From an uncultured Thermoanaerobaculia bacterium (GTDB taxonomy: Bacteria > Acidobacteriota > Thermoanaerobaculia > Thermoanaerobaculales > Sulfomarinibacteraceae), in contig CAZSTH010000006.1 in the NCBI GenBank assembly GCA_964609835.1, forward strand, positions 5,379 to 69,378: a stretch of DNA of 64,000 bases. Direction: 5' to 3'. Of this stretch, positions 12,357 through 52,098 are shown piece by piece (the first letter of the stretch is position 1; each line of letters begins with the position of its first letter). The notes under the pieces were generated by a model. It was not told where the DNA came from and made no database searches. It worked only from the letters and a program-made list of their open reading frames with translations. A program made the translations under genes and the position numbers.

Positions 12357-12647
12357 CCGTGCTCTCTCTCGAAGACATCGACCGTCACGAGGTGCGGCGC
12401 TATTTCGAAAGGTACGGCCTCGAGGAGCTGCGTGATGAGATCGAGTGACCCGACCCCGGGATTGGATCTGGAGCGCGATCTCCCGACCACTGACGAGGAC
12501 GTGGACGCACTGAGGCGTCTTCAACCCCGAGCCCATCTCCGAGACCTGCGGGACCTGGACAGATTGAGGCCTCCCTCGTGGATCCGGGAGCTGTCGGACC
12601 GACGACGGCCCTTCCGCGATTGGCCGCTGTTCCGGCTCTGACCGTCC

Positions 12648-30946: not shown

Positions 30947-31336
30947 TCCTCGCCTGAACGCCCTCACAGACTTCAGCGGGCGGCACCTCCCGCCCTTCAT
31001 CGCGCGGTCGATGTCGTTATCGGTCATCAGTCGCCGCCCTTCTTGACACCTGTCGGTCGAGTAGTCCATTCTCTTCATATGATCCACATCCCGGCGAGCC
31101 CCGATCGGAGAGCACGGTTCGGCGCGTTCTCCCCGATCTAGGTGTGTCGGTCGGTCACCCCGGCCCACCGCTCGGAGCCCTGGACCGGAGAGAGGAGGTC
31201 AGTTCCGTTGCAGGTGGTCGCTGGGGGGCGCGCACCCCCCGGTGCCCGTTCGCCGGCTTTTCCGGGGCTTGTTATTTCGATCCATGAGCGGTCGCGTGGC
31301 CTGTGCACCGCGACTGGGAAGAAGGAGGAGAGGACA

Positions 31337-36272: not shown

Positions 36273-38108
36273 ATGCGGAGTAGCTCGCGATGTTGGTTGA
36301 CGGGAGTGACGATCATGGTCGCGCTGATTTCGAACGCGGCAACGGTTCCGGCCGCCGGCCCCGAGGAGGCCGACCAGGCCGGTCTCGAGCTCGCACCCGA
36401 TGTCCTCGAGTCGCGCCTCGGGCGCGGCGAAACCGAGGGACAGGCGCTCGAGATCCTGAACTTCGGCGACACCGAGGCAACGGCCCTTCTGTTCCTACTT
36501 CCCTACTCGCCGTGGGTACCCGGCGTACCGATGGACCACATCGACATCCCGCAGCTGACCGCCGAGCAGTCGGCAGCACTGACCTCCCGACTCGTCGGAG
36601 CAACCGGACGTCAACCTGCGGCGACAAGTGCCACCGGCGAGGTCGTCTCGTCGTGGGCCCACGGTTTGACCATCGGTTGGGGCCTCGGCGTCAACCAGCT
36701 GACCGACACTATTTGGGTCGGCGACCCCGGGGCCGCAGGCGGCACCGATCTCGACTATGAGTTCACCCGCGACGGCGTGGCCACCGGCGCCACCATCGAC
36801 ACCTCGCCGTGGGCAGGGGTCTTCGCGGCCGACATGGCCTTCGATCCGATCTCCGGCATGCTGTGGCAGCTCGACGTCGGCGGCATCAACTGCATCCACG
36901 AGCTCGACCCGGTGACCGCATCGGCCACCGGCGAGACGATCTGCTGGAGCGCGCCGTCGTCGGAGCGGGGTCTGGCCTACGATCCGCTGTCGCAGACGTT
37001 CTTCGTTGGCGGTTGGAACACCCTCGCGATCACCCGCTTCGACCGGGCGGGCAACGTGCTTCAGGTCGTCGACGTCGGTCTCGCGATCTCGGGCCTGGCC
37101 TACAACCCGCAGACCGAGCATCTGTTCGTGATCGAGAACTCGATCGAAGACGCGGTCACGGTCCTCGATGTCGGCGACGACTACAGCGAGATCGGGTCCT
37201 TCACCGTGCCCGGGTTTGGGAACTATGCCGGCGCCGGCCTCGGCATCTCCTGCGACGGCCACCTGTGGGCGGCGAACCAGGCGGACATGAAGGTCTACGA
37301 GATTGATTCGGGCGAGACGGAGGCCTGCCTCGTCGCGTCCCTGCCGTGGATCGAGCTGACGCCAGGCTCCGCCGTGGTCCCTCCCGATCCAGGCGAGCAG
37401 GGGCAGGTCACCATCGACGTTCAGTTCATCGCCGACGGCCTCACCCACTTCGGGCTGGTCCAGGCCACAGTGCTTCTCACCGACGGTGACGGAGACGTCG
37501 CAGACCAGGGCCGTGTCTGCATGACGCGGGCGTTCGACGACATCGCGGAGAGCTTCTGGGCCGACGCCTCGATCCACGCCACGGCCGGCGCACGGATCAC
37601 CACCGGTTGCGGACTTGGCGATTTCTGCCCGAGCGACGTGATGCTGCGACATGTGATGGCCAACTGGCTGGTCAAGCTGACGCACGGGCCGGATTTCTCT
37701 CCGCCTCCCTGCACCGAGACCTTCGGCGACGTGGTCTGCGAGCTGACGCCGAACTCGGACTACGTCGAGCAGCTCTACGACGATGGCATCACGACCGGTT
37801 GCTCGGCCGACCCGTTGCTCTTCTGTCCGTATGACGGAGTGACCCGAGCGCAGATGGCGGTCTTCCTGCTGCGGGCCATCGAGGGACCGGACTACTTTCC
37901 GCCACCCTGCACCGGCATCTTCGGCGACGTCAACTGCCCGAGCTTCTGGGCCGCTGATTGGATCGAGGAGCTCTACAGCCGGGGCATTACAACCGGCTGC
38001 TCGGCTGACCCTCTGCTTTACTGCCCGTTCGACCTCACGAACCGGGCGCAGATGTCCGCGTTCGTCCAACGGGCGTGGGAGCTGCCCATGTGTGAGGCCG
38101 ACGACTGA
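36273..38108 (+). CDS. 611-aa secreted beta-propeller-like protein ending in three Cys-bridged SLH-like repeats. It is a paralog of the C-terminal part of 31337..36034.
   Basis: AGGAAGGAG lies upstream and the N-terminus MRSSSRCWLTGVTIMVALISNAATVPAAG looks like a signal peptide. NHL/YncE-like repeats include LAYDPLSQTFFVGGW and LAYNPQTEHLFVIEN. The SLH-like repeats occupy 37533..38105. Confidence 0.85.
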   Translation: MRSSSRCWLTGVTIMVALISNAATVPAAGPEEADQAGLELAPDVLESRLGRGETEGQALEILNFGDTEATALLFLLPYSPWVPGVPMDHIDIPQLTAEQSAALTSRLVGATGRQPAATSATGEVVSSWAHGLTIGWGLGVNQLTDTIWVGDPGAAGGTDLDYEFTRDGVATGATIDTSPWAGVFAADMAFDPISGMLWQLDVGGINCIHELDPVTASATGETICWSAPSSERGLAYDPLSQTFFVGGWNTLAITRFDRAGNVLQVVDVGLAISGLAYNPQTEHLFVIENSIEDAVTVLDVGDDYSEIGSFTVPGFGNYAGAGLGISCDGHLWAANQADMKVYEIDSGETEACLVASLPWIELTPGSAVVPPDPGEQGQVTIDVQFIADGLTHFGLVQATVLLTDGDGDVADQGRVCMTRAFDDIAESFWADASIHATAGARITTGCGLGDFCPSDVMLRHVMANWLVKLTHGPDFSPPPCTETFGDVVCELTPNSDYVEQLYDDGITTGCSADPLLFCPYDGVTRAQMAVFLLRAIEGPDYFPPPCTGIFGDVNCPSFWAADWIEELYSRGITTGCSADPLLYCPFDLTNRAQMSAFVQRAWELPMCEADD

Positions 38109-38246: not shown

Positions 38247-41200
38247 ATGAACGCACCACATGTCTTCATCGCCGGCTACTACGGCTTTCGCAACCTCGGC
38301 GACGAGGCGGTACTGTCGGCCATGCTCGACCAGCTTCGGGAGCGGCTCGAGGCCCCGACCTTCATCGTCGCCTCAGGGGACCCCGACCACACCACCCGGC
38401 AGCACGGCGTCGGCGCGGTCCCGTGGCGTGATCTCGTCGCGACCGGCAAAGCCGTTGCAGATTCGAATCTGGTCATTATCGGCGGCGGGGGGCTGTTCCA
38501 CGATTATTGGAGGGCCGACCCGACCTCGGTACTGTCCAGCCATCACTACGGCGTCTCCTGGTGCGCATCGACGGCGCTGCTCGCCCGATTGCACGACAAG
38601 CCCCTCATGATCTTCGGCGTCGGCGTCGGACCGCTTGAAACGCACGAGGGCGCCACACTGACACGGCAGGTGTTCGAGCTCGCACAAGATGCCACGGTGC
38701 GGGATTCCGAGTCGCACGATGAGCTCGAGCGACTCGGTGTCCCCGAATCTCTTGTCACCGTGAGCGCCGATCCGGTGTTCGCGAGCCCCGCTCCGGATCC
38801 GCATGTCCGCGACTGGGCCGAGCGACGCCTGACCGGCGTCACCGGCCGGCCGCTGCTCGGCGTGTGTCCCCGGGGCTGGAGCGTCGACGTCGCCCAGTCC
38901 GATTGGCTCAAGACTGTCGCTGAAGGTGTCACCAGATTCGCAAACGCCCACGAGGCGGGCGTGGTCGTGATTCCGTTCAGCGACCTCGACGAAGATGCCG
39001 CCGACGACACCGTCGTCGCCCACGCGCTAGCAGCGACGCTCTCCACCGACGGTCCGGTGCTCGAGATCGGAGTGCCCGAGGACGCTCCGAACGCACGCGC
39101 GCTGCTCGGTCGCTGCGATCTCGTGCTCGGAATGCGGTTGCACTCCGTCATCTTCGCGGCCCTTGAGGGAACGCCGTTGGTCGGCCTGGCCTACGATCCG
39201 AAGGTCCGCCGGACCCTATCGGCCCTCGGTGCCCGCTCCTCGTGTCTGGAGCTTCACGATTTGGATCCAGACCGCCTGCTTTCGAGCCTCGAGAGCGCCT
39301 TCGCGAGCCGAGAGGCGGCCGGGCCCGAACTCGCGCAGGCCGCCGCAAGGCTCGCGGCACGGGCCGCCGTCTCGGCCGACAGGGCGGTCTCGCTTCTCGG
39401 CCGCCGCGAGGTGGGGACCCAAGGCCTCCCGCCCCTGCGTGAGGATTTTTTTCGATCGGCCGTGACCACGGTCATCGAACGTGCGGAGGCGAAATCGTCG
39501 ACGGCCGAAAGACTGGAGGTGCAGCGCGACTGGATCGAAGAGCAGCGCGAGGAGCTCGCCGCTAGTAACCAGGACCTCCAAAGGCAGCTCGAGAGCCAAC
39601 GCCTCGAGATCGATGCCTTGAACGCCAGGCTTCACCGGTTGGTGTCCACCCGGGCGTTCCGCTTCGCCGCGGGGTGGTGGCGTCTCGCGTCGGGCCTCCG
39701 CCGGGCGCTCCAGAGGTCATCGAATTTCGGCGTGTTACCGCTGAGAAGCTGGTACGCCTACGCGTTCGATCGCTTCAAGAGGGCGCGGGGCGCCATCGCC
39801 GGCGATGCGGCTTCAGGCATTCATTGCCCGGGGGACGAGGGTCTGGTGTCGGTGGTGCTTCCCGTGTACAACGGCGCCGACCTCGTCCATGAATCGCTCG
39901 ACAGCCTGCTCTCGCAGACCTACTCGAACTTCGAAATCATCGCCATCAACGATGGATCGACCGACCGAACGGGCGAGGTACTCGACGATTACGCCAAGCG
40001 CGACCCGCGCGTGCGGGTCATCCACCAGCAGAACCGTAAGCTGCCCCGCACCCTGTCGCGCGGCTTCCGAATGGCGCGCGGCCAATTCCTCACCTGGACC
40101 AGCGCCGACAACCGCTGCAAACCCGAGTTCATGCAATCAATGGTGGACTGTCTCGAGCGGCATCCGGATTGGGATATGGTCTACGCCAACGTGGACATCA
40201 TCGGCGACGAAGGCGGTCCGCTCCGCGACTCGCCCTGGTTCGCCGGCTACCAGGTGCCTCCCGGCAGCGAGCACGTCCACCTGCCCCACGACCCGGGTGA
40301 GCTCAATACCTGGGCGAACAACTACGTCTGTGCCGCCTTCCTGTACCGCAGCCGCGTGGCGTGGTTGCTCGGCGACTACAGTCGCTACCGATTCACCACC
40401 GAGGACTACGACTACTGGATGCGAATCAACGAGATGCTGACGCTACGTCACGCCGATTTCGACGAACCGGTCTACGACTACCGCTTTCATGACGAGTCGC
40501 TGACCGCCCGCGACGAAGAGCTCGGCATCACCCGCGGTCGGGACCGGTTGATGGTCTTCGACGATTTCCGCCGCGACGCCCTGCTGACCTCGGCCCTCTG
40601 GCACATCGAACACCGCTCTTCTGCCACCGCGGGACTCGCCGAGGCGCTGCGGCGGCACGTCCGCCGAGCGGGCCACCTGATGTTCGATCCCGCGAAAGAT
40701 GCCGTGGAGCCATGGCCGGATTTCTATCTCACGTCGATCATGGTGCGCGTGGCTACCCCGGACGAGGCCGGTGAGCCGCCACCGAAGCTCCCCCAGAACT
40801 GCCTCAAGGTGCTCGCGCTCCAGACTGCCGAGGCGACCGTGTGTGCCCCGCGGGAGCCTGACGCTGCCTGGGACCTCTGCGTGGCGGTTGGTCCCACCGG
40901 CGGCTCGGAACCGCTGGAGCCGTACCGTCACTGGTTGGCCGCCGACGGTGCCGAATCGTTGTTCCTGGCCGCCGAGGTGCGCGCCCGGAGCGATAGCTTC
41001 GCGGCGGCCGAGGCCGCTGCCGAAGGAGCCGGTCCGAAAGCGACCCTGCGTGCATCGATCGTCATCTGCACCCACCAGGTGATCTCTCCCTTTCGGGACT
41101 CGGTGCTGTCCGCGGTGCGTCAGCACGCCGGTCCCGAGTCGTACGAGGTCTTGGTGGTGAACAACCGGCCCGGAGATCGGGACCTCGAGCTCGAGATCGA

Positions 41201-42020
41201 ATCCGTGAAAACCATCGCGGACAGTGAGCGCCCGGGGCTCATTCGCGTCGTCCGCTGCCCGGTGCCGGGCCTCTCGCACGCCCGTAACGCCGCCATCGCC
41301 GTCGCACGGGGAGAGATCGTGATCTGTCTCGATGACGACGCGATCGCTCGTCCCTCGCTGGTCGACGAGGCAGTGCGGCTGTTCGCCGAGCGGCCAGGGA
41401 TCGGCATCATCGGCGGCCATATCCGCCTCCAACCGCCCGAACCGAAGCCCGAGGTGTTGAATCCCGGGTGGGAGCGCTACTGGAGCCAGCTCCTTACCGG
41501 CGCCACCGCCTGCCACGAGGTCGAGGAATGGTGGGAGTTTCCGTGGGGCGCCTGCTGGTGCGCCCGCCGCGACCTTCTGCTGGCCATGGGCGGATTCCGC
41601 AGCCGTTACGGCCGCGTCGGCAGCGATTACGCCGGTAGCGAGGAGGTCATCGCCGCCGCGCTCGCCCAGCGCCTCGGCGCCGGCATTGCCGTTGCTCCGG
41701 AGCTCGAGGTGCAGCACCGCGTCGAGCGCAGCCGCTACACCTGGCGCCACGTCCGCCGGACGATCATCGCCGGCACCCTCGTCAACTACCAAGCCCAGCG
41801 CGACCTCTACTTGCCGATGTGGGAGGGCATCGGCTCGACCGCACGGAAACTCCTCAGCCCGTCGATCGACCGCACCGTGGGCGCCAACAGCGTCGCGGCA
41901 CGGGCCCGCCATTGGCTGTACCGCAAGGAGGCGTGGCTGCGGCTCCTCCGCGTGCAGCTCGCCGATTGGAGGCGGCGACTGCGGAGGCCATCCCACGCTG
42001 TCCGCCATCGGCGCCGGTGA
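38247..42020 (+). CDS. Trifunctional 1,257-aa protein: CsaB-type polysaccharide pyruvyltransferase domain, then a coiled coil, then two GT2 domains.
   Basis: The N-terminal domain has FIAGYYGFRNLGDEAVLSAML, VIIGGGGLFHDYW, FGVGVGPL, VRDSESHDELERLGV and SADPVF. The coiled coil is ERLEVQRDWIEEQREELAASNQDLQRQLESQRLEIDALNARLHRLV. The first GT2 domain has VSVVLPVYNGADLVHESLDSLLSQTYSNFEIIAINDGSTD. The second has YEVLVVNNRPGD and ICLDDDAIA. Confidence 0.8.
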   Translation: MNAPHVFIAGYYGFRNLGDEAVLSAMLDQLRERLEAPTFIVASGDPDHTTRQHGVGAVPWRDLVATGKAVADSNLVIIGGGGLFHDYWRADPTSVLSSHHYGVSWCASTALLARLHDKPLMIFGVGVGPLETHEGATLTRQVFELAQDATVRDSESHDELERLGVPESLVTVSADPVFASPAPDPHVRDWAERRLTGVTGRPLLGVCPRGWSVDVAQSDWLKTVAEGVTRFANAHEAGVVVIPFSDLDEDAADDTVVAHALAATLSTDGPVLEIGVPEDAPNARALLGRCDLVLGMRLHSVIFAALEGTPLVGLAYDPKVRRTLSALGARSSCLELHDLDPDRLLSSLESAFASREAAGPELAQAAARLAARAAVSADRAVSLLGRREVGTQGLPPLREDFFRSAVTTVIERAEAKSSTAERLEVQRDWIEEQREELAASNQDLQRQLESQRLEIDALNARLHRLVSTRAFRFAAGWWRLASGLRRALQRSSNFGVLPLRSWYAYAFDRFKRARGAIAGDAASGIHCPGDEGLVSVVLPVYNGADLVHESLDSLLSQTYSNFEIIAINDGSTDRTGEVLDDYAKRDPRVRVIHQQNRKLPRTLSRGFRMARGQFLTWTSADNRCKPEFMQSMVDCLERHPDWDMVYANVDIIGDEGGPLRDSPWFAGYQVPPGSEHVHLPHDPGELNTWANNYVCAAFLYRSRVAWLLGDYSRYRFTTEDYDYWMRINEMLTLRHADFDEPVYDYRFHDESLTARDEELGITRGRDRLMVFDDFRRDALLTSALWHIEHRSSATAGLAEALRRHVRRAGHLMFDPAKDAVEPWPDFYLTSIMVRVATPDEAGEPPPKLPQNCLKVLALQTAEATVCAPREPDAAWDLCVAVGPTGGSEPLEPYRHWLAADGAESLFLAAEVRARSDSFAAAEAAAEGAGPKATLRASIVICTHQVISPFRDSVLSAVRQHAGPESYEVLVVNNRPGDRDLELEIESVKTIADSERPGLIRVVRCPVPGLSHARNAAIAVARGEIVICLDDDAIARPSLVDEAVRLFAERPGIGIIGGHIRLQPPEPKPEVLNPGWERYWSQLLTGATACHEVEEWWEFPWGACWCARRDLLLAMGGFRSRYGRVGSDYAGSEEVIAAALAQRLGAGIAVAPELEVQHRVERSRYTWRHVRRTIIAGTLVNYQAQRDLYLPMWEGIGSTARKLLSPSIDRTVGANSVAARARHWLYRKEAWLRLLRVQLADWRRRLRRPSHAVRHRRR

Positions 42021-42025
42021 GAAAG

Positions 42026-42760
42026 ATGGAGATGGACAATAACAACAGCCGCCCGGTCAATCAGAGCCCCGATTGGCAGGACGAGATCAGCTTCTGGGAG
42101 GAACAGCTGTCCGGCGACGGACAGTACTCCGATCTCTACCTCGACAGATTCGACCTCAGCAAACCGGGTTGGGCCTACCGCGACGATCTCGAAGACCTGA
42201 TCCGCGCGCTCGGCGCCGAGAAAGCGCGCAGCGGCAGGGTGCTGGATGTGGGCTCGGGGCCGGGTTCGGTGTTCTCGTACGGCTATTTCACCGGACGCTT
42301 CGACCTCGTCGCCGTGGACCCGCTGGTCACCGAGTATCTCGCGCTGATGAAAAAGCACGGCCGGCCCCAGATCTGCCCCATGGTGGATTGCGCCGGTGAG
42401 CATCTCAGCCGCCACCTGCCGCGCGGGCACTTCGACTTCGTGTGGTCCCACAACGCCATCGACCACAGCCAGCAGCCGGACCGTGTGCTCGCGAACATGG
42501 TCGACGTCACGCGGCCCGGCGGGGTCCTCGTGGTCCAGTGCTGGCAGGACGAGGCGACCCACGCCGCGTGGACCGGGCTGCACGCCTTCGACTTTCGTAA
42601 GCGGTCCGACGGCCATCTCTGCTACGCCACCAGCGACGGCGCGGTTCACCCGTTCCACGACCCCCGGATCGACGTCATCGATCCCTTGGTGGCCCCACTG
42701 AAAAACGTGCCGGAGCGCGACGGCAAGACCTGGATCGCGGCATGGTACCGCCGTCGGTGA
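42026..42760 (+). CDS. Class I SAM-dependent methyltransferase.
   Basis: The motifs RVLDVGSGPGS and TRPGGVLVV are present. It starts 6 nt after the upstream stop. Confidence 0.75.
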   Translation: MEMDNNNSRPVNQSPDWQDEISFWEEQLSGDGQYSDLYLDRFDLSKPGWAYRDDLEDLIRALGAEKARSGRVLDVGSGPGSVFSYGYFTGRFDLVAVDPLVTEYLALMKKHGRPQICPMVDCAGEHLSRHLPRGHFDFVWSHNAIDHSQQPDRVLANMVDVTRPGGVLVVQCWQDEATHAAWTGLHAFDFRKRSDGHLCYATSDGAVHPFHDPRIDVIDPLVAPLKNVPERDGKTWIAAWYRRR

Positions 42761-42789: not shown

Positions 42790-45700
42790 TTACTCCACAT
42801 AACCTAGAGCTTCGAGCTGTTTCCGCGTCTCCTCTGACAGCTCGGTCTCGTCCTGGCTGAGATCGTCCGACCACGCGGGGCTTGCAGCGATGAGTTGATC
42901 GAGCTCGTGGCGCAGACTCGCCAACACATCCGGCCGTTCCGCAACGAGATTCGTTCGTTGGTGAGGATCGGACTCGAGGTCGAAGAGCATGAACTGTGAG
43001 ACATCATTCCTTTTTCCGGTGAGAAAATCGGCGCCCGCGGTCGAGATCTCAGATACCTCGTGAACGCCGAGATCTGCGACCACGATATGCCGCTCATCTT
43101 TGTTGCCGGAGGTCACGTTGAAGGATCCCCGATTATTGCTGTAAAAGCGCCGCCAGCGCTCCTCGAGGTTGAGCTTGATCCTGAGGCGGGTCGAACCGGG
43201 CTCGAGGGGCAGCAACACGGTGTCCTTGACCACCTCGCCCGCGAGCCAGCTGAAGGAGGGCCGCCTGGCACCGCCGAGAAACCACCACAGCGAACACCTC
43301 GCGGATCCTCCAGTGACTGTCTCCGCCTCTGCGAACGCCGCCGCCGACAGCAGATATCGGCTCGAGATCATGGCCTGCCAGTACAGCGTGAGAAACAACT
43401 GGTCGCTGTGGCGCCTGAGATCGTAACCGACCAGACCGACAACGTCGTTGAATGACACGGCCAGCTCGTGCTCGGGCGTCAGCCGAGCAACCCGTTCGGC
43501 CGACTCTTCATCGCCGAGAATCGCCAGCTCGCGGTTCGCCTCGAGATGGCTCGGCACTTTGGCCAGACACGATTCCAACAACGACCTGCGCCCCTCGGCC
43601 CCGCTTTCGGTCTTAGCCAGGAAGAAATCGAGCTGTCCCTGCCCCGGATGACGGGTCGCGAGCAGCTCGAGGGCGTCGCGCACGTCGACGGTTGACCGGT
43701 CGACGCCGGCCGCGGGAAGGTCCTCCGGCCCGAGATCGCGAGTGGCGCAGGCAACCAGCCTGTCGCGCTGCGAATCCGAGATTTCCAGCGAGGCGCAGGT
43801 CGTCGGCGTTTTCGCGATCGACAGGCGCCCCTGATTGAAATAGAGAGGGTAGTCGACCACACCCACCTCGAGATCGTAGGTCCCCGGCTCGAGATCGGGG
43901 GGCACGGTCAACCACAGACAGTCATCCGCCAGCAGCTGCCGTTTCTCGAACGTTCGCTCCTCGAGGCGCCAGGGATCGATGAGAGGTCTCGGTTTGGCCT
44001 CGGGGTCCGGAAGCGGCCGGAAGAAGCTCGTCACCTCCTGGACGGCGACCCGACCTGCCCGGTCCACCAGCCGCCAGAGAACACCCACCCCGCGATCCAC
44101 GTTGCCGAGAACCCGCCAAACGGGGGTCAATCTGACGGTCTGGCCGCGGACCACCGCCGTGGGTGTCGCATCGAGGGCAGCCAGCTGCAGCGCATCGGTG
44201 AGGCGGACGGGCGCTATGCAGGACAACGACAATAGCGTTGCCCAGGGTCGCGAATCGCCGTGACCGTTTCTCCATACCCCCTCGATGCGCAATCGTCCGC
44301 CGTCCGGGGGCAACGGAAGAGGCGGAACCGTTCCTTCGAAGTCACCCGGCGAAAACTCGCCGAGCTCGACGTTTTCTTCGCCTATCGAGGCGCGCAGGGC
44401 GAGACGACCCTCCCCCGCGGGTCCGCGCAGAGTGCCGGCGAGCTTCACGGCCGCGCCACCGTCCAACACCGCCCGCGCGAGAGCCAGGGACTCCAGTGTC
44501 ACGTCCGGAGCCAGCACCACAGGCCATCGAATGCTGCTCCGTCCGGGCGCCGTTGGAACGAAGGTCGTTGGACCTTCCACCACGGACTGGTATTCGGTCG
44601 CCATCAGCAAGGCACCGCCGAAACGAGACCCTCCGTTGTAGACCAGGCGCCAACGACCTGAGGTGAGAGCCCACCCACTCTCCCCTCTCGAGGCGCCTTC
44701 CTGGCTGACCACAATCCGGTTCGGCGGCGCGGCATCGACGAGAGGCGAGTTGAGCATCCCGAAATCTCCGCTGAGACCAGCCATCACGAGCACGGTCGGC
44801 GCGATGTCGAGATGTGAGACCACCTCGTTCACCACCGACGGCCGGCGCCGCACGGTGTCGTGGACGAGGAGCGGAACGTGCAGGATTTCGTCGATCAGGA
44901 GCTTGCCGTGGTCGCACATCAGACCGTGCTCGCCGAGGGCCTCACCATGATCGCTGGTGACGATGAAGATCGTTCGCCGCCGCCGTGGCAACGCCTGCCA
45001 ACGCCTGAAGAAGTCGTCGGCGAGCGAGTCGGCATAGGCAATATTGGCCTCGTAGCGGCGCAGGTAGTCCGCCAGATCGGTCTGCAGCGAGGCCTTAGCC
45101 TGGTACCAGGGAATCCGCCCGATCACCGAGTCGCCGAGCGATAGACGGGCGCCGAAACGGGAGCTGTGCGGCAGATGGTCGACAACCGGGGCTGCATGGA
45201 AATCCGGTCGATCGAGAATCTCGTCGGGCGGCAGGTAGGGTCCGTGCGGCGGCCAGAAGTGGATGTAGACAAACGCCGGCCGGTTCGCGTCGGCTCCGGA
45301 TGCCCAGTCCAGGCACTCATCGGTCACGCGCGACCCCAGATCGTGATCCCTGGCGGCCTCGTAGGAGACGTGATCGAACTGACCCTCGAGCCCGTAGCTT
45401 TCTCCGATGGCCGGGTTGGCGGTGAAGAACCCGGTTCGATAGCCGCCGTCGGCGAGTGGCCGGGCGAGGGTCGATCGATTCTCGGGAAAGGCCTTGTTGA
45501 ATCGCCAGCCCTGGTGGGCGAGCGGAGGCAACCCGGAGAGCAGGCTGGTCACGGCAGGCCGGGTCCAGGTGGCTGCCGCGTAGCAGCGGGAGAAGACCAG
45601 CGATCGCGCCGCCAGGCCTGCAAGGAAGGGAGCCGTGTTCCGTGTATGGCCGTGGAACGGCAGTGATTTGGCGCGCAGGCTATCGAGAACCAGCACGACG

Positions 45701-45816
45701 ATATCGGGCCGTTCTTCCTCCCGAACGCCGCATCCCGCCAGACCTATCGCGACAGTCGACGCGCTCAGGGTGCTGATGAACTGGCGGCGTGAGATGTCGG
45801 TTCGATACCGGCTCAC
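42790..45816 (-). CDS. 1,008-aa Tat-exported lipoprotein with a sulfatase/alkaline-phosphatase-superfamily fold, split by a large insertion.
   Basis: The N-terminus is SRRQFISTLSASTVAIGLAGCG (twin-arginine motif plus lipobox). The fold motifs are IVVLVLDSLRAKSL and TSDHGEALGEHGLMCDHGKLL. The nucleophile segment reads ATWTRPAVTSLLSG instead of C/S-x-P-x-R. The sulfatase-type C-terminal motif FMLFDLESDPHQRTNLV appears only near residue 950. Confidence 0.75.
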   Translation of the reverse strand: MSRYRTDISRRQFISTLSASTVAIGLAGCGVREEERPDIVVLVLDSLRAKSLPFHGHTRNTAPFLAGLAARSLVFSRCYAAATWTRPAVTSLLSGLPPLAHQGWRFNKAFPENRSTLARPLADGGYRTGFFTANPAIGESYGLEGQFDHVSYEAARDHDLGSRVTDECLDWASGADANRPAFVYIHFWPPHGPYLPPDEILDRPDFHAAPVVDHLPHSSRFGARLSLGDSVIGRIPWYQAKASLQTDLADYLRRYEANIAYADSLADDFFRRWQALPRRRRTIFIVTSDHGEALGEHGLMCDHGKLLIDEILHVPLLVHDTVRRRPSVVNEVVSHLDIAPTVLVMAGLSGDFGMLNSPLVDAAPPNRIVVSQEGASRGESGWALTSGRWRLVYNGGSRFGGALLMATEYQSVVEGPTTFVPTAPGRSSIRWPVVLAPDVTLESLALARAVLDGGAAVKLAGTLRGPAGEGRLALRASIGEENVELGEFSPGDFEGTVPPLPLPPDGGRLRIEGVWRNGHGDSRPWATLLSLSCIAPVRLTDALQLAALDATPTAVVRGQTVRLTPVWRVLGNVDRGVGVLWRLVDRAGRVAVQEVTSFFRPLPDPEAKPRPLIDPWRLEERTFEKRQLLADDCLWLTVPPDLEPGTYDLEVGVVDYPLYFNQGRLSIAKTPTTCASLEISDSQRDRLVACATRDLGPEDLPAAGVDRSTVDVRDALELLATRHPGQGQLDFFLAKTESGAEGRRSLLESCLAKVPSHLEANRELAILGDEESAERVARLTPEHELAVSFNDVVGLVGYDLRRHSDQLFLTLYWQAMISSRYLLSAAAFAEAETVTGGSARCSLWWFLGGARRPSFSWLAGEVVKDTVLLPLEPGSTRLRIKLNLEERWRRFYSNNRGSFNVTSGNKDERHIVVADLGVHEVSEISTAGADFLTGKRNDVSQFMLFDLESDPHQRTNLVAERPDVLASLRHELDQLIAASPAWSDDLSQDETELSEETRKQLEALGYVE

Positions 45817-46661
45817 CAGTCATGCCCCTCTTCATACCCGAGGGTCACCAGGAGATCTCCGCAACGTTCTTTGACGAATGCCTGCGCGTCGGGCGTCCGG
45901 ATATGGTTCTTCCAGTCGCCGACGATGCCCTTGCGAAAGAGCGGTTTGAACTCGCGCGCGCGCCGCAGGTGATCGGCGAATGGAATCGGCTCGTCCACGT
46001 AGTGCGAGCTCACCATCGCGTCGTCAGGAATCTGCAGTCCGCTGAACCCGATCACCCGCTCGAGCACGCCGACGAAGTCTTCTTTCATCCCCTCGTAGGT
46101 GATCTTGAGGAAATCGACCCCGTCCTCCTCGAGCGAGCGCTCCGCCGCGAGAACTTTCTCGCAGCTCGTGATCGAGGCCTCGAAGACCTTGCTCTGCTTA
46201 AGGTATTCGAAGGTACCGACGTCGTCGTGCTCCTCAACCTTGTGCAGCTGCCGCTGGAGGTAGAGCTCGTTCGAGATGTATACGTCTCTCGGATCACGGT
46301 AGAGGATCACGGTCTTGGTGTCGCGGAAAAGGTGGCGGAATTCAAGGAAGGAGTGGATGTTGGACGGCGCCTTGTCTACCAGCAACCCTACGTGGGCGTG
46401 GCGCTCACGCTCGATCTCATACAGCCGGACGATCTTTTCTTCCGGCGTCAGACCTTCGTCCTGGCGGACGGCGAGGTACTGCTTGTCCTGTGACGTCTCG
46501 GCGTTCCACTGACGGTCGAGCGAGAAGTTCACGAAGTAGAGAAAGTCAAACTCGCGGGGAAACATCATGTGCGGCCGTACGGTGAGACCGTGAGCCAGCC
46601 AGCTGCTGCCGCACTTGGCCGGGTTGAGCACCAGCAGAAAATCCTTGAATACCCTGCTCAC
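45813..46661 (-). CDS. Sulfotransferase.
   Basis: LVLNPAKCGSSWLAHGL resembles the 5'-PSB loop and ILYRDPRDVYIS resembles the 3'-PB motif. The GTG start has GGAGGGGG upstream. It overlaps both neighbours by 4 nt. Confidence 0.75.
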   Translation of the reverse strand: MSRVFKDFLLVLNPAKCGSSWLAHGLTVRPHMMFPREFDFLYFVNFSLDRQWNAETSQDKQYLAVRQDEGLTPEEKIVRLYEIERERHAHVGLLVDKAPSNIHSFLEFRHLFRDTKTVILYRDPRDVYISNELYLQRQLHKVEEHDDVGTFEYLKQSKVFEASITSCEKVLAAERSLEEDGVDFLKITYEGMKEDFVGVLERVIGFSGLQIPDDAMVSSHYVDEPIPFADHLRRAREFKPLFRKGIVGDWKNHIRTPDAQAFVKERCGDLLVTLGYEEGHDW

Positions 46662-47461
46662 GCCCCCTCCCCTCCGCTCGCCGACGCTTTGGCAGATTGA
46701 CCGCCCGCAACCCCGGCCAACGGCTCCTGTGTGTACAGGCTGACCACCTCGTCCACCGGTCCGAGCGCCGTCAACCGGCCCGTGCTCAGCAGAGCCGCGC
46801 GCGTGCACAGATTGCGCACCGCCTGCAGATTGTGGGAGACCAGGAGCACGGTTGCTCCACCGTCGCGGAATTCGTTGATCCGCTCGGTGCACTTCGCCTT
46901 GAACTCGGTGTCGCCCACCGACATGATCTCGTCCATCAGCAGAACGTCCGGTCGCACGTCGGTGGCGATCGCGAAGCCGAGCCGGGCGCGCATGCCCGTC
47001 GAGTACGTCCGCAGCGGTGCGTCGATGAAATCCGCGAGGCCCGCGAAGTTGATAATTCGATCGAAACGCGCCGCCATGTCCGCGCTCGAAAAGCCAAGGG
47101 TCGCGCCGACCAGAAAGACGTTCTCCCGCCCGCTGAGCTCGTCGTTGAACCCCGCGCCGAGGCCGAGCAGCGGCGCCACCAGGCCGCGAACCACGACCCG
47201 ACCGCCGGTCGGTCGAAGCACCCGCGCCACCACCTTGAGGAGCGTCGTCTTGCCGGCACCGTTGCGGCCGATGAGGCCGAAGACCTCGCCCGCCCGGACC
47301 TCGAACGAGATGTCGCGCAGCGCCCAGAACTCACCCACCGCCAGCTGTCGCTTGAGCCTCCGGATCGCGTACTCCTTGAACGAGGTCACCTTCTCGTGCG
47401 AGACCCGGTAGCACAGCGAGAGTTCCTGGACGGCGATCGCGGGTCGAGGCGCGGTGCTCAC
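46658..47461 (-). CDS. wzt: Polysaccharide-export ABC transporter ATP-binding protein (Wzt/TagH/KpsT type), with no C-terminal carbohydrate-binding extension.
   Basis: FWALRDISFEVRAGEVFGLIGRNGAGKTTLLK, YSTGMRARLGFAIA and VLLMDE are present. At 267 aa it contains only the ATPase core. Confidence 0.85.
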   Translation of the reverse strand: MSTAPRPAIAVQELSLCYRVSHEKVTSFKEYAIRRLKRQLAVGEFWALRDISFEVRAGEVFGLIGRNGAGKTTLLKVVARVLRPTGGRVVVRGLVAPLLGLGAGFNDELSGRENVFLVGATLGFSSADMAARFDRIINFAGLADFIDAPLRTYSTGMRARLGFAIATDVRPDVLLMDEIMSVGDTEFKAKCTERINEFRDGGATVLLVSHNLQAVRNLCTRAALLSTGRLTALGPVDEVVSLYTQEPLAGVAGGQSAKASASGGEGA

Positions 47462-47462
47462 G

Positions 47463-48326
47463 TCACGCCCTCAACGCGAACTCGTGCTGGTTCTTGACGA
47501 AGATCCACCATCCTGCGACCACCGCGATCAGCGCGCCGGCGGAGGACACCGCGAGCGATTCGGCCGACGGCAGGACGCCGGCGTAGATCGGGTCCCGCCA
47601 GCACGCGAGGAGGTGGTAGAGGGGGTTCGCCCGCACCAACCACACGAAACGCTCCGGGAGGATATCCTCCGGGTACATCACCGGCGTCAGATAGAACAGC
47701 GCCCGCACCAGCACCCCCCACATCTCGACCACATCTGTGTAGCGGACGGCAACGGTGGACATGATGAGGCCGACGCCGAGGGAAAAGCACGCCAGCAGCA
47801 CCATGGCAACCGGCAGGAACAGGAGCGACCAGGACAGCCGCTGGCCGAGCACCAGCATGATCAGAAGCACCGGCGCCAGCGACATGGTGAGGTTGACGAG
47901 TGCAGTGCCCACCGACGACAGGGGGTAGGTGGCCGCTGGGACGTAAACCTTCTTCAACAGTGAACTCCCCCACACCAGCGACCGCATGCTCTGGGTAGTG
48001 CTCTCCTGGAAGAAGCCGAAGAACACGAGTCCGGCGAGCACGTAGACCGGGTAGTTCGGCACCGAGAAGCGGAAGATCGCCGAGAACGCGATGCTCATCA
48101 CGATCATCGTCAGCAGAGGGCTCAGCAACGACCAGCCGATTCCCAGCACCGATCGTTTGTAGCGGCTCTTGACGTTGGTGGCGATCAGGAGGCGCAGGAA
48201 GTCTTTGTAGCGCACCACCTCCAGCAGCCCGCTCCACAGCGGTCGCCGCCCCGCCGTCGACGAGTCGTAGACGAGCCCGCCCGCGGGCACGCCCTCGGCC
48301 TGGGCTGTGGTCGACCGCTCGTTCAT
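47463..48326 (-). CDS. wzm: ABC-2 type polysaccharide-export permease (Wzm/TagG type).
   Basis: DFLRLLIATNVKSRYKRSVLGIGWSLLSPLLTMIVMSIAF is the family motif, followed by six hydrophobic segments. The ATG at 48326 has GGAGGG upstream and an ATGA overlap with the upstream gene. Confidence 0.85.
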   Translation of the reverse strand: MNERSTTAQAEGVPAGGLVYDSSTAGRRPLWSGLLEVVRYKDFLRLLIATNVKSRYKRSVLGIGWSLLSPLLTMIVMSIAFSAIFRFSVPNYPVYVLAGLVFFGFFQESTTQSMRSLVWGSSLLKKVYVPAATYPLSSVGTALVNLTMSLAPVLLIMLVLGQRLSWSLLFLPVAMVLLACFSLGVGLIMSTVAVRYTDVVEMWGVLVRALFYLTPVMYPEDILPERFVWLVRANPLYHLLACWRDPIYAGVLPSAESLAVSSAGALIAVVAGWWIFVKNQHEFALRA

Positions 48327-50377
48327 TCGCCCTCCGCGCTGTCGCTGCGCCTCTTGGCGTGAAAACGCCGCCGGTTGGCCTCGTAGATCCGTTCGTACGC
48401 CTCCGGCGGCAGCTTGCCGAAGCTGGCCTCCTGGAAATGGTGGACCCACGCATCGCGCCGGCACCGGACATCGTACCCTGCCCGGCGGATGCGGCGGCTG
48501 AAGTCGTCGTCCTCGAACAGGCCGACCTCGAAGCGCTCGTCGAGCCCGCCCACCTCCTCCCACACTGTCCTCCGCAGCGCCGCGCAGTACAGGGCGAGCA
48601 TGGGAATCGAGAAGTCCTCACCGCGATGGTTCCATACGAAGTCGGCGGCCCAGTCCTCCAGTTCTCCCAGATCTTGGTAGCCCGGCTCCACCCGCGCTTC
48701 GTTGGCGACGCCACCACTCGATGGCCCCACCAACCCAAGTTCAGGAGACCCCATCAGCGCTTCCGTCAATGTGGACAGCCAACCCCGGCTGACGATGGTG
48801 TCGTTATTCAGGAAGCAGAGGATCTCCGATTCGCATCCGGCGAAGGCCTGATTGCACGCGGCGGCAAAGCCGCGGTTGTCATCGTTGAGAATCACCCGGT
48901 GTCCCGGCCGTCGAGCAACCTCGTCGCCGAGCCATGCGGCGGTGCCGTCCGTGGAGGCATTGTCCACTACCACCACCTCGTAGTTGGGATGGATAGTCTG
49001 CGATTCGATGCTGGCAAGGCAAAGCTCGGTAAGCTTGCGGTTATTGAACGTCACGATGCCGATGGTCACGGACGGGAAGAGCTCGACCATGGCCCGCTCG
49101 AGCACCTCGACGCGAGCCTCCCACGAGTTCTCGACCGCAAAAGACCGTCGCTCGGCTACACTGATGCTTTCACCCACAACTGCCTGATCGAGCTCTCTCA
49201 AAAAGGTCTCGATGTCGTCGGCCAAACGAACGAGTTGTTCGAGGCGAGCAATCTCGGGCAGGGAGGGCGCCACAACCTCGAGACCCAGAGCGAGCATCTC
49301 GTAGAGCTTGACCGGGTCGGTGGCCTCGGTCAGGGGCGTGCGTTTGAACGGTATCATTCCGACGTCGAAGGCTGAGGCCAGGCTCGGAAGCTCAGAGTAC
49401 TTTCGTTCGCCGAGCAGATGGACGTTCGGCAGCACCTCGAGACGGGTCACGTCGGCGCCCCAGGTGGACCCGATAAGGACGAATGACCAATCGGGCCGGG
49501 CCACGGCCAGCGATTCAACAAGCCCCACGTCGAACCACTCCGAGATCGCTCCGAAGTAGCCCACGATGGGCCGCGGCAATTCCTGCAGTTCCCCCGCGGT
49601 ATCCACGCGTCGCCAGTGCTCGGGGTCGCAGCCGTTCGGCAATCGAAGCACCGGGCGCCGGGTCGGTCGTTCCACTTCCGCCAGCCGCGCGGCCGTCGCC
49701 GTCACCAGATCAGCCTCGCTCACCAGGCGGTTGTCATCCTCGCCAACAGACCGAGCGGTGGTCGAGAAACCCTCGTGGAGATCGATACGGTCGTAGACGA
49801 TCGGCCACCCGTGCTCCCGACGAAGAATCTCCGCGAGCGGCCGCCAGCCCGGGCTCTGGCACAGGACAATCGCCGAGTCGATTCGATGGCTCGCCACCAG
49901 CTTGCGAATCGCATCCGCGGCCATTCGGATGTCGCCGGATGCCAGGCGTTCCTCGCCCACCCGTCGACTGCGCGACGCCGGCAGAAGCACTTCGTGAACC
50001 CCGGGCGCTTGCGGCTCCGGGTCGACGAACACCACGCCGCCTCCGCCTCCCTCGAGCTCCGTGCCGGCATAGAGCACCGGCCACCCACGGGCCGCCAAAC
50101 GCCCCAGGAGGTGGTGCGGCCTCTGTACGCGCAGCTCCCAGTCGATGACCGAAAGGAAGATGATCGTCGGCCGGGCGGGCGAATCTCCAAAATGTACGCT
50201 CGCGCCGGCGCCTAACGCTCCGCCGGTAGATCCCGCGACGAATTGTCCGCGGTCCCGGCCGCGTCCGATGACTCGGAGTATTGTCCGGCGCACCCGGAAC
50301 GGCAGGACCGTCGCCGCAATTGCCTTGACAGTAGCCACCGGGTGCCGGACCCGATGCCACCAGAGTCCAAGTCGCAT
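48323..50377 (-). CDS. Bifunctional glycosyltransferase with an N-terminal GT4-like domain and a C-terminal GT2 domain.
   Basis: The GT4-like part has TIIFLSVIDWELRVQRPHHLLGRLAARGWPVLY and VGMIPFKRTPLTEATDPVKLYEMLALGLEVV. The GT2 part has VTIGIVTFNNRKLTELCLASIESQT, VVVDNASTDGT and FLNNDT. The start is uncertain (ATG 50377 preferred, 50455 or 50608 possible). Confidence 0.75.
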   Translation of the reverse strand: MRLGLWWHRVRHPVATVKAIAATVLPFRVRRTILRVIGRGRDRGQFVAGSTGGALGAGASVHFGDSPARPTIIFLSVIDWELRVQRPHHLLGRLAARGWPVLYAGTELEGGGGGVVFVDPEPQAPGVHEVLLPASRSRRVGEERLASGDIRMAADAIRKLVASHRIDSAIVLCQSPGWRPLAEILRREHGWPIVYDRIDLHEGFSTTARSVGEDDNRLVSEADLVTATAARLAEVERPTRRPVLRLPNGCDPEHWRRVDTAGELQELPRPIVGYFGAISEWFDVGLVESLAVARPDWSFVLIGSTWGADVTRLEVLPNVHLLGERKYSELPSLASAFDVGMIPFKRTPLTEATDPVKLYEMLALGLEVVAPSLPEIARLEQLVRLADDIETFLRELDQAVVGESISVAERRSFAVENSWEARVEVLERAMVELFPSVTIGIVTFNNRKLTELCLASIESQTIHPNYEVVVVDNASTDGTAAWLGDEVARRPGHRVILNDDNRGFAAACNQAFAGCESEILCFLNNDTIVSRGWLSTLTEALMGSPELGLVGPSSGGVANEARVEPGYQDLGELEDWAADFVWNHRGEDFSIPMLALYCAALRRTVWEEVGGLDERFEVGLFEDDDFSRRIRRAGYDVRCRRDAWVHHFQEASFGKLPPEAYERIYEANRRRFHAKRRSDSAEGE

Positions 50378-50522
50378 CCCGCCCCCCCTACCACGTGCCC
50401 GAGCATGGTCGGCGGTCGAATCGGCTGGTGATTTCGGGTTGCTTTCGGACGGCATCTCCGGGGATTCTACAGCACGCCCGCTGTAACATTCTGTGGAAGA
50501 CCGGTTCCCGTAGAATGGATCA

Positions 50523-51881
50523 ATGAGCATGAAACCTGCAGCATTCGTAGCTCTCTCCACGGTTGTTTTTCTTGCGCTCGCCGGCGTCTGCATCGGGGCT
50601 GAAGACAACGGCCTCGAGGTCGGGTTAACGGCCTACGAGGACGGCGACTTCGAAACCGCTCTCGAACTCTGGGGACCGCTGGCCGAGGTCGGATCCACCG
50701 AGGCCCAGTACTACCTCGGCGTCATGTACTCACGCGGCGAGGGTGTGCCCGCCGATCCCGAGATCGGCGCCAACTGGTACAACCGCGCAGCCTCGTTCGG
50801 CCACGCCCGGGCCCAGTTCAATCTCGGCCTCGCGTATCTCAAAGGGGTGGGCGTCGAGCGCGACACTGACGAGGGCGCCAAATGGATCCTCAAATCAGCC
50901 CAGCAGGACTGGCCACCGGCCCAGCATGCCTACGCCCTGCTTCATGTTCAGGGTGTCGGCGTCGAGATCGACATGGAGGAGGCGGCAGCTTGGATGTTGA
51001 AGGCCGCGGAAAACGCCAACGCCGACGCCCAGTACGCCCTCGGTATGATGTACGTGCAGGGCCGGGGCGTCGAAAAAGGTCCGCCCGAGGGGATTCGGTG
51101 GCTGCAGGCAGCCGCCGCGCAGTCCCACCCGGAGGCCGTCTATGCGCTCGCAATGGCCAATCCGGCCCGCGGTTTTGAGGCTGATACTCCCGAAGCGTTA
51201 GAGAAGATCCGGGCCGCAGCCGACCTTGGCTATGCCCAGGCCCAGTACGACCTCGGTGCAGCATATGCGACCGGGTCGGCCGGTTTGGAGCAAGACGAGG
51301 CCGCGGCAGCGCGCTGGTTCCTCAAGGCCGCCAGTCAGGGTCTGGCTCGGGCTCAGTACGAGGTCGGCTATCTCTACGAGCACGGCCAGGGCATCGACAA
51401 GGACGAGTCGGAAGCCGCCAGGTGGTATTCCCTGGCCGCTGACCAGGGCGATGACAACGCCAAATATGCGCTCGGCTACCTTTACTCCTCCGGCCGGGGC
51501 GTCGAGCGCGACCTCGATCGGGCATTCGCTTTGATTTCGAACGCAGCCGCCGGCGGCCAGGTCCCGGCCCAATATGCCCTCGGCTTCATGTACGACATGG
51601 GGCACGGCACTGCTCAAGACTACGGTATAGCCCTCGATTGGTATCGCAAGGCGGCTGCCGGCAGTAACGCCGACGCCATGTTCGCGATCGGAAACCTTTA
51701 TGCGAACGGTCTCGGAGTCTCAGAGGATATTGTTGAAGCCGAGAAGTGGTATTGTCGCGCCGCTCGCCTCGGACATCAGCAATCGATAAAAATACTGCCA
51801 TGGGACAGCCCGGATGATGTTTGCGGTCCGGTCGATCCTCCAGAGTCGGCAGACCACCCTACCGATACAGAAATCGAATAG
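50523..51881 (+). CDS. Secreted Sel1-like (SLR/TPR) repeat protein.
   Basis: A signal peptide is present. About ten repeats follow, of the form AQYxLGxMYxxGxGVxxDxxEAxxWxxKAA. Confidence 0.85.
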   Translation: MSMKPAAFVALSTVVFLALAGVCIGAEDNGLEVGLTAYEDGDFETALELWGPLAEVGSTEAQYYLGVMYSRGEGVPADPEIGANWYNRAASFGHARAQFNLGLAYLKGVGVERDTDEGAKWILKSAQQDWPPAQHAYALLHVQGVGVEIDMEEAAAWMLKAAENANADAQYALGMMYVQGRGVEKGPPEGIRWLQAAAAQSHPEAVYALAMANPARGFEADTPEALEKIRAAADLGYAQAQYDLGAAYATGSAGLEQDEAAAARWFLKAASQGLARAQYEVGYLYEHGQGIDKDESEAARWYSLAADQGDDNAKYALGYLYSSGRGVERDLDRAFALISNAAAGGQVPAQYALGFMYDMGHGTAQDYGIALDWYRKAAAGSNADAMFAIGNLYANGLGVSEDIVEAEKWYCRAARLGHQQSIKILPWDSPDDVCGPVDPPESADHPTDTEIE

Positions 51882-51957: not shown

Positions 51958-52098
51958 GGGCCTGATAAATTTAATTGAAAATCGGAGCAAGAAGTGAAAC
52001 AATAAATGTACACAGAAAAGGTCGCGATCGGCCGGAGTTTCCCACCTAATGTTGGCAGAAATTGATGGATGACCGAACCTGAAAAGGAGGCGAAAGCT

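Follow-up and report, generated by a model that had tools for sequence, protein, structure and literature searches.

The stretch of DNA analysed here, 64,000 nucleotides of contig CAZSTH010000006.1 from an uncultured Thermoanaerobaculia bacterium (the window), encodes on its minus strand an exported, sulfatase-like protein of 1008 residues. Its gene is the last of an operon that runs from a glycosyltransferase gene through genes for a Wzm/Wzt-type ATP-binding cassette (ABC) exporter and a sulfotransferase. The open reading frame (ORF), 42790..45816, starts with GTG and is a real gene: homologues align across its full length at 63%, 55% and 47% identity, falling to about 30%, and the AlphaFold (AF2) model of the protein has a predicted local distance difference test score (pLDDT) of 87.6 and a predicted template-modelling score (pTM) of 0.89. 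A previous interpretation made from the letters alone (the sequence-only reading) had described a lipoprotein exported by twin-arginine translocation (Tat), with a sulfatase fold, Thr at the nucleophile position and a large insertion. The features of the gene are given below, with the coordinates of every motif verified through translation.

42790..45816, minus strand: whole gene, exported Thr-type sulfatase-like (PF00884) protein of 1008 residues (ORF, Pfam, 28 full-length homologues, AF2 model)
45730..45816, minus strand: signal peptide, residues 1-29, with S-R-R-Q-F-I, a hydrophobic region and the lipobox L-A-G-C29 (sequence, homologue conservation, model)
44626..45708, minus strand: alkaline-phosphatase-fold catalytic core and first three strands of the C-terminal subdomain, residues 37-397 (PF00884, Foldseek, secondary structure)
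45679..45684, minus strand: D45-S46, predicted first metal ligand, with Ser in place of the second Asp of the sulfatase 'DD' (alignments)
45550..45564, minus strand: nucleophile motif T85-R-P-A-V89 in place of (C/S)-x-P-x-R (6hhm/3b5q alignments, EptA alignment)
45235..45261, minus strand: H186-F-W-P-P-H191-G-P-Y, invariant His pair (invariant columns, hhalign)
44908..44952, minus strand: D289-H290-G-E292...H303, predicted metal ligands and Glu/His pair (invariant columns, 6hhm 'CKH' alignment, hhalign to EptA)
44209..44607, minus strand: insert domain B1, residues 404-536, a family-specific immunoglobulin (Ig)-like beta-sandwich (AF2 models, Foldseek, profile search)
43771..44199, minus strand: insert domain B2, residues 540-682, a beta-sandwich of a GT-C-associated repeat family (profile search, Pfam of matched proteins)
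43477..43770, minus strand: helical segment of the insert, residues 683-780, five or six helices, family-specific (DSSP of models)
43051..43476, minus strand: insert domain B3, residues 781-922, a second copy of the GT-C-associated beta-sandwich (exhaustive search, Pfam, profile search)
42790..43008, minus strand: returning sulfatase C-terminal subdomain, residues 937-1008, with strand 4, L-F-D-L-E-S-D-P and the C-terminal helices (phmmer to 3b5q, 5g2t and 5g2v; DSSP)

In the model, helix 10-27 is the sole N-terminal hydrophobic helix and the catalytic core begins at residue 37. The lipobox part of the Tat-lipoprotein assignment stands, L-A-G-C29, with which the signal peptide ends, agreeing with the pattern [LVI][ASTVI][GAS]C. 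The Tat part is less clear: the arginine pair is present and is kept in 19 of the 19 homologues whose gene call extends to the N-terminus, but the TIGR01409 Tat model scores the protein just below its cut-off (13.9 against 16.7 bits). About 14 homologues have a canonical lipobox, and roughly one third of the family, including most of the more divergent, probably planctomycete-type sequences, is without one. In our view the protein is a predicted metalloenzyme of the alkaline-phosphatase superfamily, putatively exported by Tat and probably anchored to lipid.

PF00884 (Sulfatase) matches residues 37-347 with E = 7e-36 and 124.5 bits, against a gathering threshold of 25. The closest relatives in both sequence and fold are S1 sulfatases and phosphonate monoester hydrolases, such as BT4656 (5G2V), choline sulfatase (6G5Z), FA22070 (6HHM) and the phosphonate monoester hydrolase 4UPH. 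They share with the protein the two subdomains, the four-stranded C-terminal sheet with L-x-D-L-x-x-D-P, the first Asp, the D-H pair and the His of P-H-x-P. They differ in three respects: their nucleophile is a formylglycine derived from Cys or Ser, where the protein has Thr; the second Asp of their 'DD' is replaced by S46, a substitution that parallels the E-T of EptA; and their C-terminal subdomain is undivided, where that of the protein is split by an insert of 540 residues. Phmmer alignments to solved sulfatases set C-A-P-S-R of 6hhm and S-Q-P-S-R of 3b5q opposite T85-R-P-A-V89, with Thr85 at the formylglycine position and Val89 at that of the motif Arg, in agreement with the alignment made by eye in the sequence-only reading.

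This replacement is a property of the whole family. Thr85 is present in all 27 members that cover the site, each with the motif T-[RKV]-P-[AS]-[VI], and neither the protein nor its family carries the (C/S)-x-(P/A)-x-R motif that defines S1 sulfatases in SulfAtlas (criterion taken from PMC5066984). These alignments place no Cys or Ser with P-x-R at the active site, and the predicted metal ligands are retained. Formylglycine maturation, which had looked impossible from the letters, is indeed not to be expected, given that the motif is replaced in every family member and that an oxidised Thr would yield a ketone instead of formylglycine (SulfAtlas, PMC5066984). The core motifs that had been called intact, VLDSLR (with D45) and SDHGEALGEHG (with D289-H290), are present and conserved across the family. 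In the family alignment, H186, H191, D289, H290, G291, E292 and H303 are invariant and D45, P87, N134 and H335 nearly so; as far as sequence can tell, conservation of the catalytic residues to this degree speaks for a functional enzyme. The basic residues with which S1 sulfatases bind sulfate, in contrast, are all four lost: the Arg of C-x-P-x-R is V89, the Lys and His of G-K-x-H are A133 and P135 (alignment to 3b5q and 5g2v), and the Lys after D-H-G is D302, at a position variable in the family (alignment to 6hhm). On this residue pattern, the protein is almost certainly not a sulfatase.

What kind of active site has taken the place of the sulfatase site? Aligned by hhalign with E. coli K-12 EptA (probability 91.7%, E = 7.6e-7), the family profile pairs D45 with the Zn-ligand Glu, T85 with the nucleophile Thr, H186 and H191 with L-H-x-x-x-S-H-G-P, D289-H290-G-E292 with S-D-H-G-E, and H303 with the His of Y-L-H-G. 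In MCR-1, E246, T285, D465 and H466 are the Zn1 ligands, and H395 and H478 with the partner E468 touch the phospho-Thr and are required for full activity (PMC5216409). The segment D289-H290-G-E292...H303 corresponds to D465-H466-G-E468...H478 of MCR-1. H191, which aligns with the His of S-H-G-P in EptA, presumably corresponds to H395. Every catalytic position of the phosphoethanolamine and phosphoglycerol transferases, namely the Thr nucleophile, the acidic/D-H metal site and the auxiliary His, thus has its counterpart in the alignment. EptA/MCR-1, LtaS, GacH, OpgB and BcsG share with the protein the Thr, the acidic residue and D-H, the His of H-G-P and D-H-G-E...H (by the EptA alignment), and they work outside the cytoplasmic membrane on envelope glycoconjugates; unlike it, they have an N-terminal multi-span membrane domain, in place of which the protein has a single hydrophobic helix (10-27) and an S1-type C-terminal subdomain, and overall similarity is low. 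The likeness to EptA and MCR-1 to which the sequence-only reading had pointed is now a one-to-one catalytic alignment, stronger than could be known at that stage. A weaker likeness links the protein to the NPP phosphodiesterases (PF01663), which also use a Thr nucleophile (E = 0.0019, 18.3 bits against a gathering threshold of 23); the second-metal ligand set of that family is not evident in the protein sequence, a point for which no dedicated test was made. To judge from these alignments, the protein is a sulfatase scaffold carrying a predicted phosphoryl-transfer active site.

The large insert that had been deduced from the displaced C-terminal motif is real and conserved. That motif, 'MLFDLESDPHQRTNL' (residues 943-979), is aligned by phmmer with residues 407-445 of the 482-residue 3b5q and 466-520 of 5g2v, which leaves about 540 additional residues (398-936) between it and the rest of the sulfatase fold. 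In the AF2 model the first three strands of the C-terminal subdomain span residues 369-393, the insert leaves after strand 3 (389-393) and returns before strand 4 (942-946), and the C-terminal helices follow at 962-1004. Modelled separately, the insert has a pLDDT of 84.3. It had been called a region of unknown function; this part of the description can be revised, since the insert consists of Ig-like sandwiches, two of them of a repeat also present in the periplasmic parts of GT-C glycosyltransferases, around a helical segment that looks by inspection like a TPR-like bundle and gives no repeat-family match.

The evidence for the shared repeats comes from profile searches. An exhaustive search showed that residues ~774-889 match a unit that occurs two to four times in more than 100 other proteins. 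Among ten repeat-bearing proteins scanned, seven have N-terminal PMT_2 or PTPS_related (GT-C) domains, and no Pfam-A model covers the repeats in any of the ten. The motif common to B2 and B3 reads YLTLYWEA...WWFLGG..RPT..W..GE. The B2 profile matches 120 of 126 non-family proteins (P0109-P0234) on the same repeat units as B3, that of B1 only one of them, and the helical segment matches nothing outside the family; as the 126 were chosen by insert similarity, only the B2 result is independent. Compared directly by hhalign, B2 and B3 resemble each other weakly (probability 17%, E = 0.0015), which alone is insufficient for homology; we regard them as related because both profiles match the same repeat units in GT-C proteins. 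A query with B3 alone gave zero matches in a word-indexed protein database, the domain having been found in the exhaustive search of representatives. On the strength of the profiles, B2 and B3 appear to be two copies of a periplasmic repeat common to GT-C enzymes, and the repeat, without a model in Pfam-A, is a candidate new domain family. In the PMT_2/PTPS_related proteins, two to four tandem repeats follow the membrane domain, whereas in our protein two copies are nested within a subdomain of the sulfatase fold. By analogy, the GT-C-type sandwiches suggest that the protein may hold a glycan or wall polymer.

The full architecture is rare. In a protein search, 28 others of about 1000 residues matched along their full length with 30-63% identity; after these the similarity fell sharply, and the remaining matches covered the catalytic third only. 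When 1.84 billion representative proteins were searched exhaustively with the insert alone, only 26 matched at E <= 1e-10. The family amounts to some 26-30 clusters, from Acidobacteriota and Planctomycetota; among genome records, the nearest are metagenome-assembled genomes (MAGs) of Candidatus Sulfomarinibacteraceae (63%), Thermoanaerobaculia (47%) and Planctomycetaceae (36%). The family is set apart by the motif T-[RK]-P-[AS]-[VI], by conservation of N134 and H335, and by the insert. Thr itself is more common than the sequence-only reading implied, and no peculiarity of the protein: 62 of 66 more distant matches have it, usually in the motif T-L-P-S-H (one has Ser, two do not cover the site and one, P0095, has C-S-P-S-R), as do 30 of the 59 PF00884 seed sequences (SulfAtlas, PMC5066984). 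A large sister clade annotated as 'sulfatase-like hydrolase/transferase' (P0030-P0094; 600-900 residues, often TPR-fused; Acidobacteriota, Holophagae, Chloroflexota and others) has the same catalytic core with Thr, D-[TSA], H191, D-H and H303, but its motif is T-L-P-S-H, it has no nested insert, and H335 and N134 are not conserved. What is new here is the rare nested architecture with a consistent linkage to Wzm/Wzt glycan clusters; the Thr is ordinary for its branch of PF00884.

Paralogues are frequent. Two tandem copies of about 1030 residues lie in a Planctomycetota contig (L044, 5156-8248 and 8299-11403), and short members of the sister clade adjoin the 1000-residue family in three loci. 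These short Thr- or Ser-type neighbours are found at 8237-10114 in L003, at 8368-9930 and 1-1823 in L004 and at about 14309-16405 in L008, and the motifs of such adjacent genes in the three loci are T-L-P-S-V, S-L-P-S-M and T-N-Y-S-M. The adjoining paralogues suggest several related activities on one polymer. In the closest relative, from a Sulfomarinibacteraceae MAG (L006, 9989-13025), the orthologue is split into two frames near residue ~500, either by an assembly frameshift or as a pseudogene.

The genes around the family member in the window are the following.

45813..46892, minus strand: sulfotransferase of the 3'-phosphoadenosine-5'-phosphosulfate (PAPS) type (PF00685), upstream and translationally coupled (Pfam, synteny)
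46658-47461, minus strand: Wzt-like ABC ATPase (Pfam)
47463-48563, minus strand: Wzm-like ABC-2 permease (Pfam)
48323..50608, minus strand: GT4-like and GT2 glycosyltransferase, first gene of the minus-strand run (Pfam)
38247-42020, plus strand: fusion of a CsaB-type pyruvyltransferase with two GT2 domains, convergent (Pfam, tblastn synteny)
41819-42760, plus strand: class I methyltransferase, convergent (Pfam)

The GTG start of the PF00884 gene overlaps the TGA stop of the sulfotransferase gene (GTGA). As listed, the sulfotransferase ORF shares about 235 nucleotides with the end of the ABC ATPase gene, and homologues align from residue ~82 only; translation probably begins around residue 80 of that ORF, near 46650. 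We examined ten distinct loci with family members in the two phyla (L001, L002 and L007, with the same protein, counting as one). Glycosyltransferase genes surround the family member in 10 of 10, a methyltransferase is present in nine, a close homologue of the GT2-GT2 protein in six, and Wzm/Wzt within 10 kb in seven, two of these with a Wzt_C cap-binding domain. The Wzm/Wzt pair is syntenic in L001, L006, L042, L044, L045 and L008, and orthologues of the GT4-like/GT2 protein, 60-73% identical by tblastn, occupy the same position in L001, L006 and L042. Less common are short adjoining paralogues (three loci), the sulfotransferase (two, namely the window and L006), a WecA-type initiating transferase and tandem family copies (one locus each). 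No gene with an LCP (LytR-CpsA-Psr) or O-antigen-ligase domain is annotated in the ten loci.

Taken together, a dedicated post-export step in the adjacent, ABC-transporter-dependent Wzm/Wzt glycan pathway is the best explanation of the protein. We tentatively favour, as its activity, that of a Thr-nucleophile metallo-phosphoesterase or phosphotransferase that would act after export on a phosphate ester of the glycan or of its undecaprenyl-pyrophosphate (Und-PP) anchor. Phosphoryl transfer through a phospho-Thr85, as opposed to sulfuryl transfer, is proposed because the sulfate-binding residues are lost and the catalytic residues match EptA/MCR-1 one to one; action downstream of the ABC exporter, because of the export signal and the operon structure. 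B2 and B3 lend support to a glycan role, since the PMT_2/GT-C enzymes that bear the same repeat act on exported glycans. There is also a precedent in GacH, a Thr-type PF00884 enzyme of an ABC-dependent polysaccharide cluster that modifies its polymer after export (PMC9574508).

We propose the following mechanism. A divalent metal held by D45, T85, D289 and H290 would activate the Thr85 hydroxyl, which would attack a phosphate ester carried by the polymer after export or by the Und-PP to which it is anchored. The ester could be a phosphodiester or a pyrophosphate. Binding or protonation of the phosphoryl group may fall to H191 together with the E292/H303 pair. The phospho-Thr, a covalent intermediate, could then be resolved by water, which would release or trim the polymer, or by an acceptor hydroxyl, which would ligate it, while the 540-residue arm of three Ig-like sandwiches and a helical bundle would hold the polymer or a cell-wall acceptor.

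Several observations weigh against this proposal. The protein is overall nearer to S1 sulfatases than to any phosphotransferase in both sequence and fold: all of the top 50 Foldseek matches of the model are S1 formylglycine sulfatases or phosphonate monoester hydrolases (E ~1e-17, target template-modelling (TM) scores of 0.5-0.6), 46 of 46 sequence matches in the Protein Data Bank are sulfatases or phosphonate monoester hydrolases, and LtaS and EptA are absent from both sets. NCBIfam likewise gives 8e-26 for arylsulfatase and 4e-8 for EptA. The fold search with the insert alone returned only generic tandem Ig, fibronectin type III and macroglobulin arrays with low TM-scores, among them A2ML1, complement C3/C5 and the Vibrio matrix scaffold RbmA, and no enzyme or defined carbohydrate-binding family. 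Finally, in three of the ten loci the sequence available contains no ABC transporter, two of these three being truncated by contig ends.

The main rival, which we consider unlikely, is a decorating transferase of the GacH/EptA/LtaS type, with Thr85 moving phosphoglycerol or phosphoethanolamine from a phospholipid to the exported glycan, as the sequence-only reading had suggested in proposing a transferase. The match of catalytic residues to EptA/MCR-1 fits it, a lipobox would keep the enzyme at the membrane surface, and just such a transfer is carried out by GacH in a polysaccharide cluster that depends on an ABC transporter (PMC9574508). The lipobox, however, is missing in roughly one third of the members, and the NCBIfam scores are far below the cut-offs (EptA, 31.9 against 561 bits; MCR families, 10-25 against 1075-1250 bits). 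Furthermore, the protein has a signal peptide only. To our knowledge, the characterised LtaS, EptA/MCR-1, GacH, OpgB and BcsG enzymes all have an N-terminal multi-span membrane domain, which is thought to present the lipid donor. GacH is described as a membrane protein (PMC9574508) and MCR-1 as membrane-bound (PMC5216409).

A more ambitious idea, which we regard as a long shot, is that the family represents a new type of phosphotransferase for glycopolymers, with the sulfatase fold as its base, and is a functional analogue of the LCP ligases. The analogy is one of role only, the folds being unrelated: LCP proteins, themselves extracytoplasmic phosphotransferases, have as substrates Und-PP-linked polymers that an ABC transporter has exported (PMC9574508). 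Thr85 would attack the pyrophosphate of an Und-PP-polymer delivered by Wzm/Wzt, freeing undecaprenyl phosphate, and the polymer-1-phosphate would be passed to peptidoglycan or another envelope acceptor, with the B2 and B3 sandwiches binding the acceptor or the polymer. If this were true, the enzyme would anchor the pyruvylated polymer bound by the SLH proteins of the island in the window, and would supply a missing ligation step in a Gracilicutes lineage, a group in which SLH and CsaB are reported to be nearly absent.

It is similarly improbable that the protein is a general phosphate-scavenging phosphatase or phosphodiesterase that lies near glycan genes by chance. In its favour, PF01663, the NPP model, gives weak scores for the sister clade, whose T-x-P-S-H recalls the NPP motif T-F-P-N-H, and PhoD phosphodiesterase genes lie about 9.3-9.6 kb downstream in two loci (L001 and L042). 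Chance proximity is hard to reconcile with glycan-gene linkage in all ten loci of two phyla and with translational coupling inside the operon of the window, and a scavenging enzyme would not be expected to have a conserved, 540-residue Ig-like arm with domains known also from GT-C enzymes.

It appears very improbable that the protein is a true sulfatase that relies on Thr, or on a post-translationally oxidised Thr, to edit sulfate added by the neighbouring sulfotransferase. The S1 fold and the coupled sulfotransferase directly upstream, a pair repeated in L006, would fit, but the sulfotransferase is absent from the other eight loci, all four sulfate-binding basic residues are lost, and Thr cannot become formylglycine (PMC5066984). 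The sulfotransferase was therefore rejected as definer of the family's function. Oxidation of Thr85 by a radical S-adenosylmethionine (radical-SAM) maturase appears unlikely as well; the gene has no maturase gene as a neighbour in the window, whose sole radical-SAM gene (11193-12536) is about 30 kb distant. Least probable of all is a catalytically inactive scaffold or glycan-binding protein on a dead sulfatase fold: inactive alkaline-phosphatase-fold domains exist, as in the periplasmic domain of YejM/PbgA, to which there is a weak NCBIfam match, and the protein has three Ig-like domains, but metal ligands, nucleophile and auxiliary His/Glu that are invariant at only ~30% overall identity indicate selection for catalysis.

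What is the relevance of a phosphoryl-transfer site on a sulfatase scaffold? Under automatic annotation the protein goes by the name 'arylsulfatase A-like enzyme' or 'sulfatase', as do its relatives; this label is almost certainly wrong and inflates the sulfatase counts behind ecological claims on Planctomycetota and Acidobacteriota. Under our favoured reading, the family would mark a conserved, uncharacterised post-export step of ABC-transporter-dependent glycan assembly in two poorly studied phyla. A sulfatase scaffold that appears to carry the catalytic kit of phosphoethanolamine and phosphoglycerol transferases without their membrane domain is also a useful case of nucleophile and substrate-class switching in the superfamily, and an unannotated GT-C beta-sandwich repeat is now tied to a second kind of periplasmic glycan enzyme.

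The wider region of the window, 28.7-61 kb, encodes at least three proteins with SLH domains, further glycosyltransferases and a Wzx-like flippase. An island of SLH and CsaB-type pyruvyltransferase genes at 28700-61000 comprises 38247-42020, 52069-52932, 53027-55486 and 55575-56777; the PF04230 domain is the N-terminus of the 1257-residue fusion (38247-42020), and one of the three SLH proteins is a subtilase-SLH fusion. According to a survey preprint (10.1101/2021.05.31.446380), CsaB and SLH are practically absent in Gracilicutes; this island may be an exception, or it may have been acquired by transfer. Two genes of the plus strand, 31142-36034 (1630 residues, with CarboxypepD_reg and DUF4394) and 36273-38108 (611 residues, no Pfam match), encode proteins that share their C-terminal ~270 residues with each other and with an SLH-annotated protein of L001 (656-1960), and both are likely to be surface proteins anchored to the wall as well.

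Near the Thermoanaerobaculia orthologues, two loci contain several flanking radical-SAM genes in addition to PhoD (L001, 9055-9777 and 15749-18348; L042, 13061-14464 and 20069-22668). Two are of the B12-binding type (L001 and L042) and one is a short gene of 240 residues (L001). B12-binding radical-SAM enzymes are typically methyltransferases and not of the sulfatase-maturase type.

Elsewhere in the window, a predicted ORF of 1982 residues (54-6002, plus strand) has no Pfam match at E <= 1e-4, and a 1230-residue protein with TPR and CHAT (caspase-like) domains is encoded at 6520-10212 on the minus strand. The plus-strand gene at 17858-19282 encodes an unusual four-domain fusion of YscW, the NlpE N-terminal domain, the NlpE C-terminal OB domain and META.

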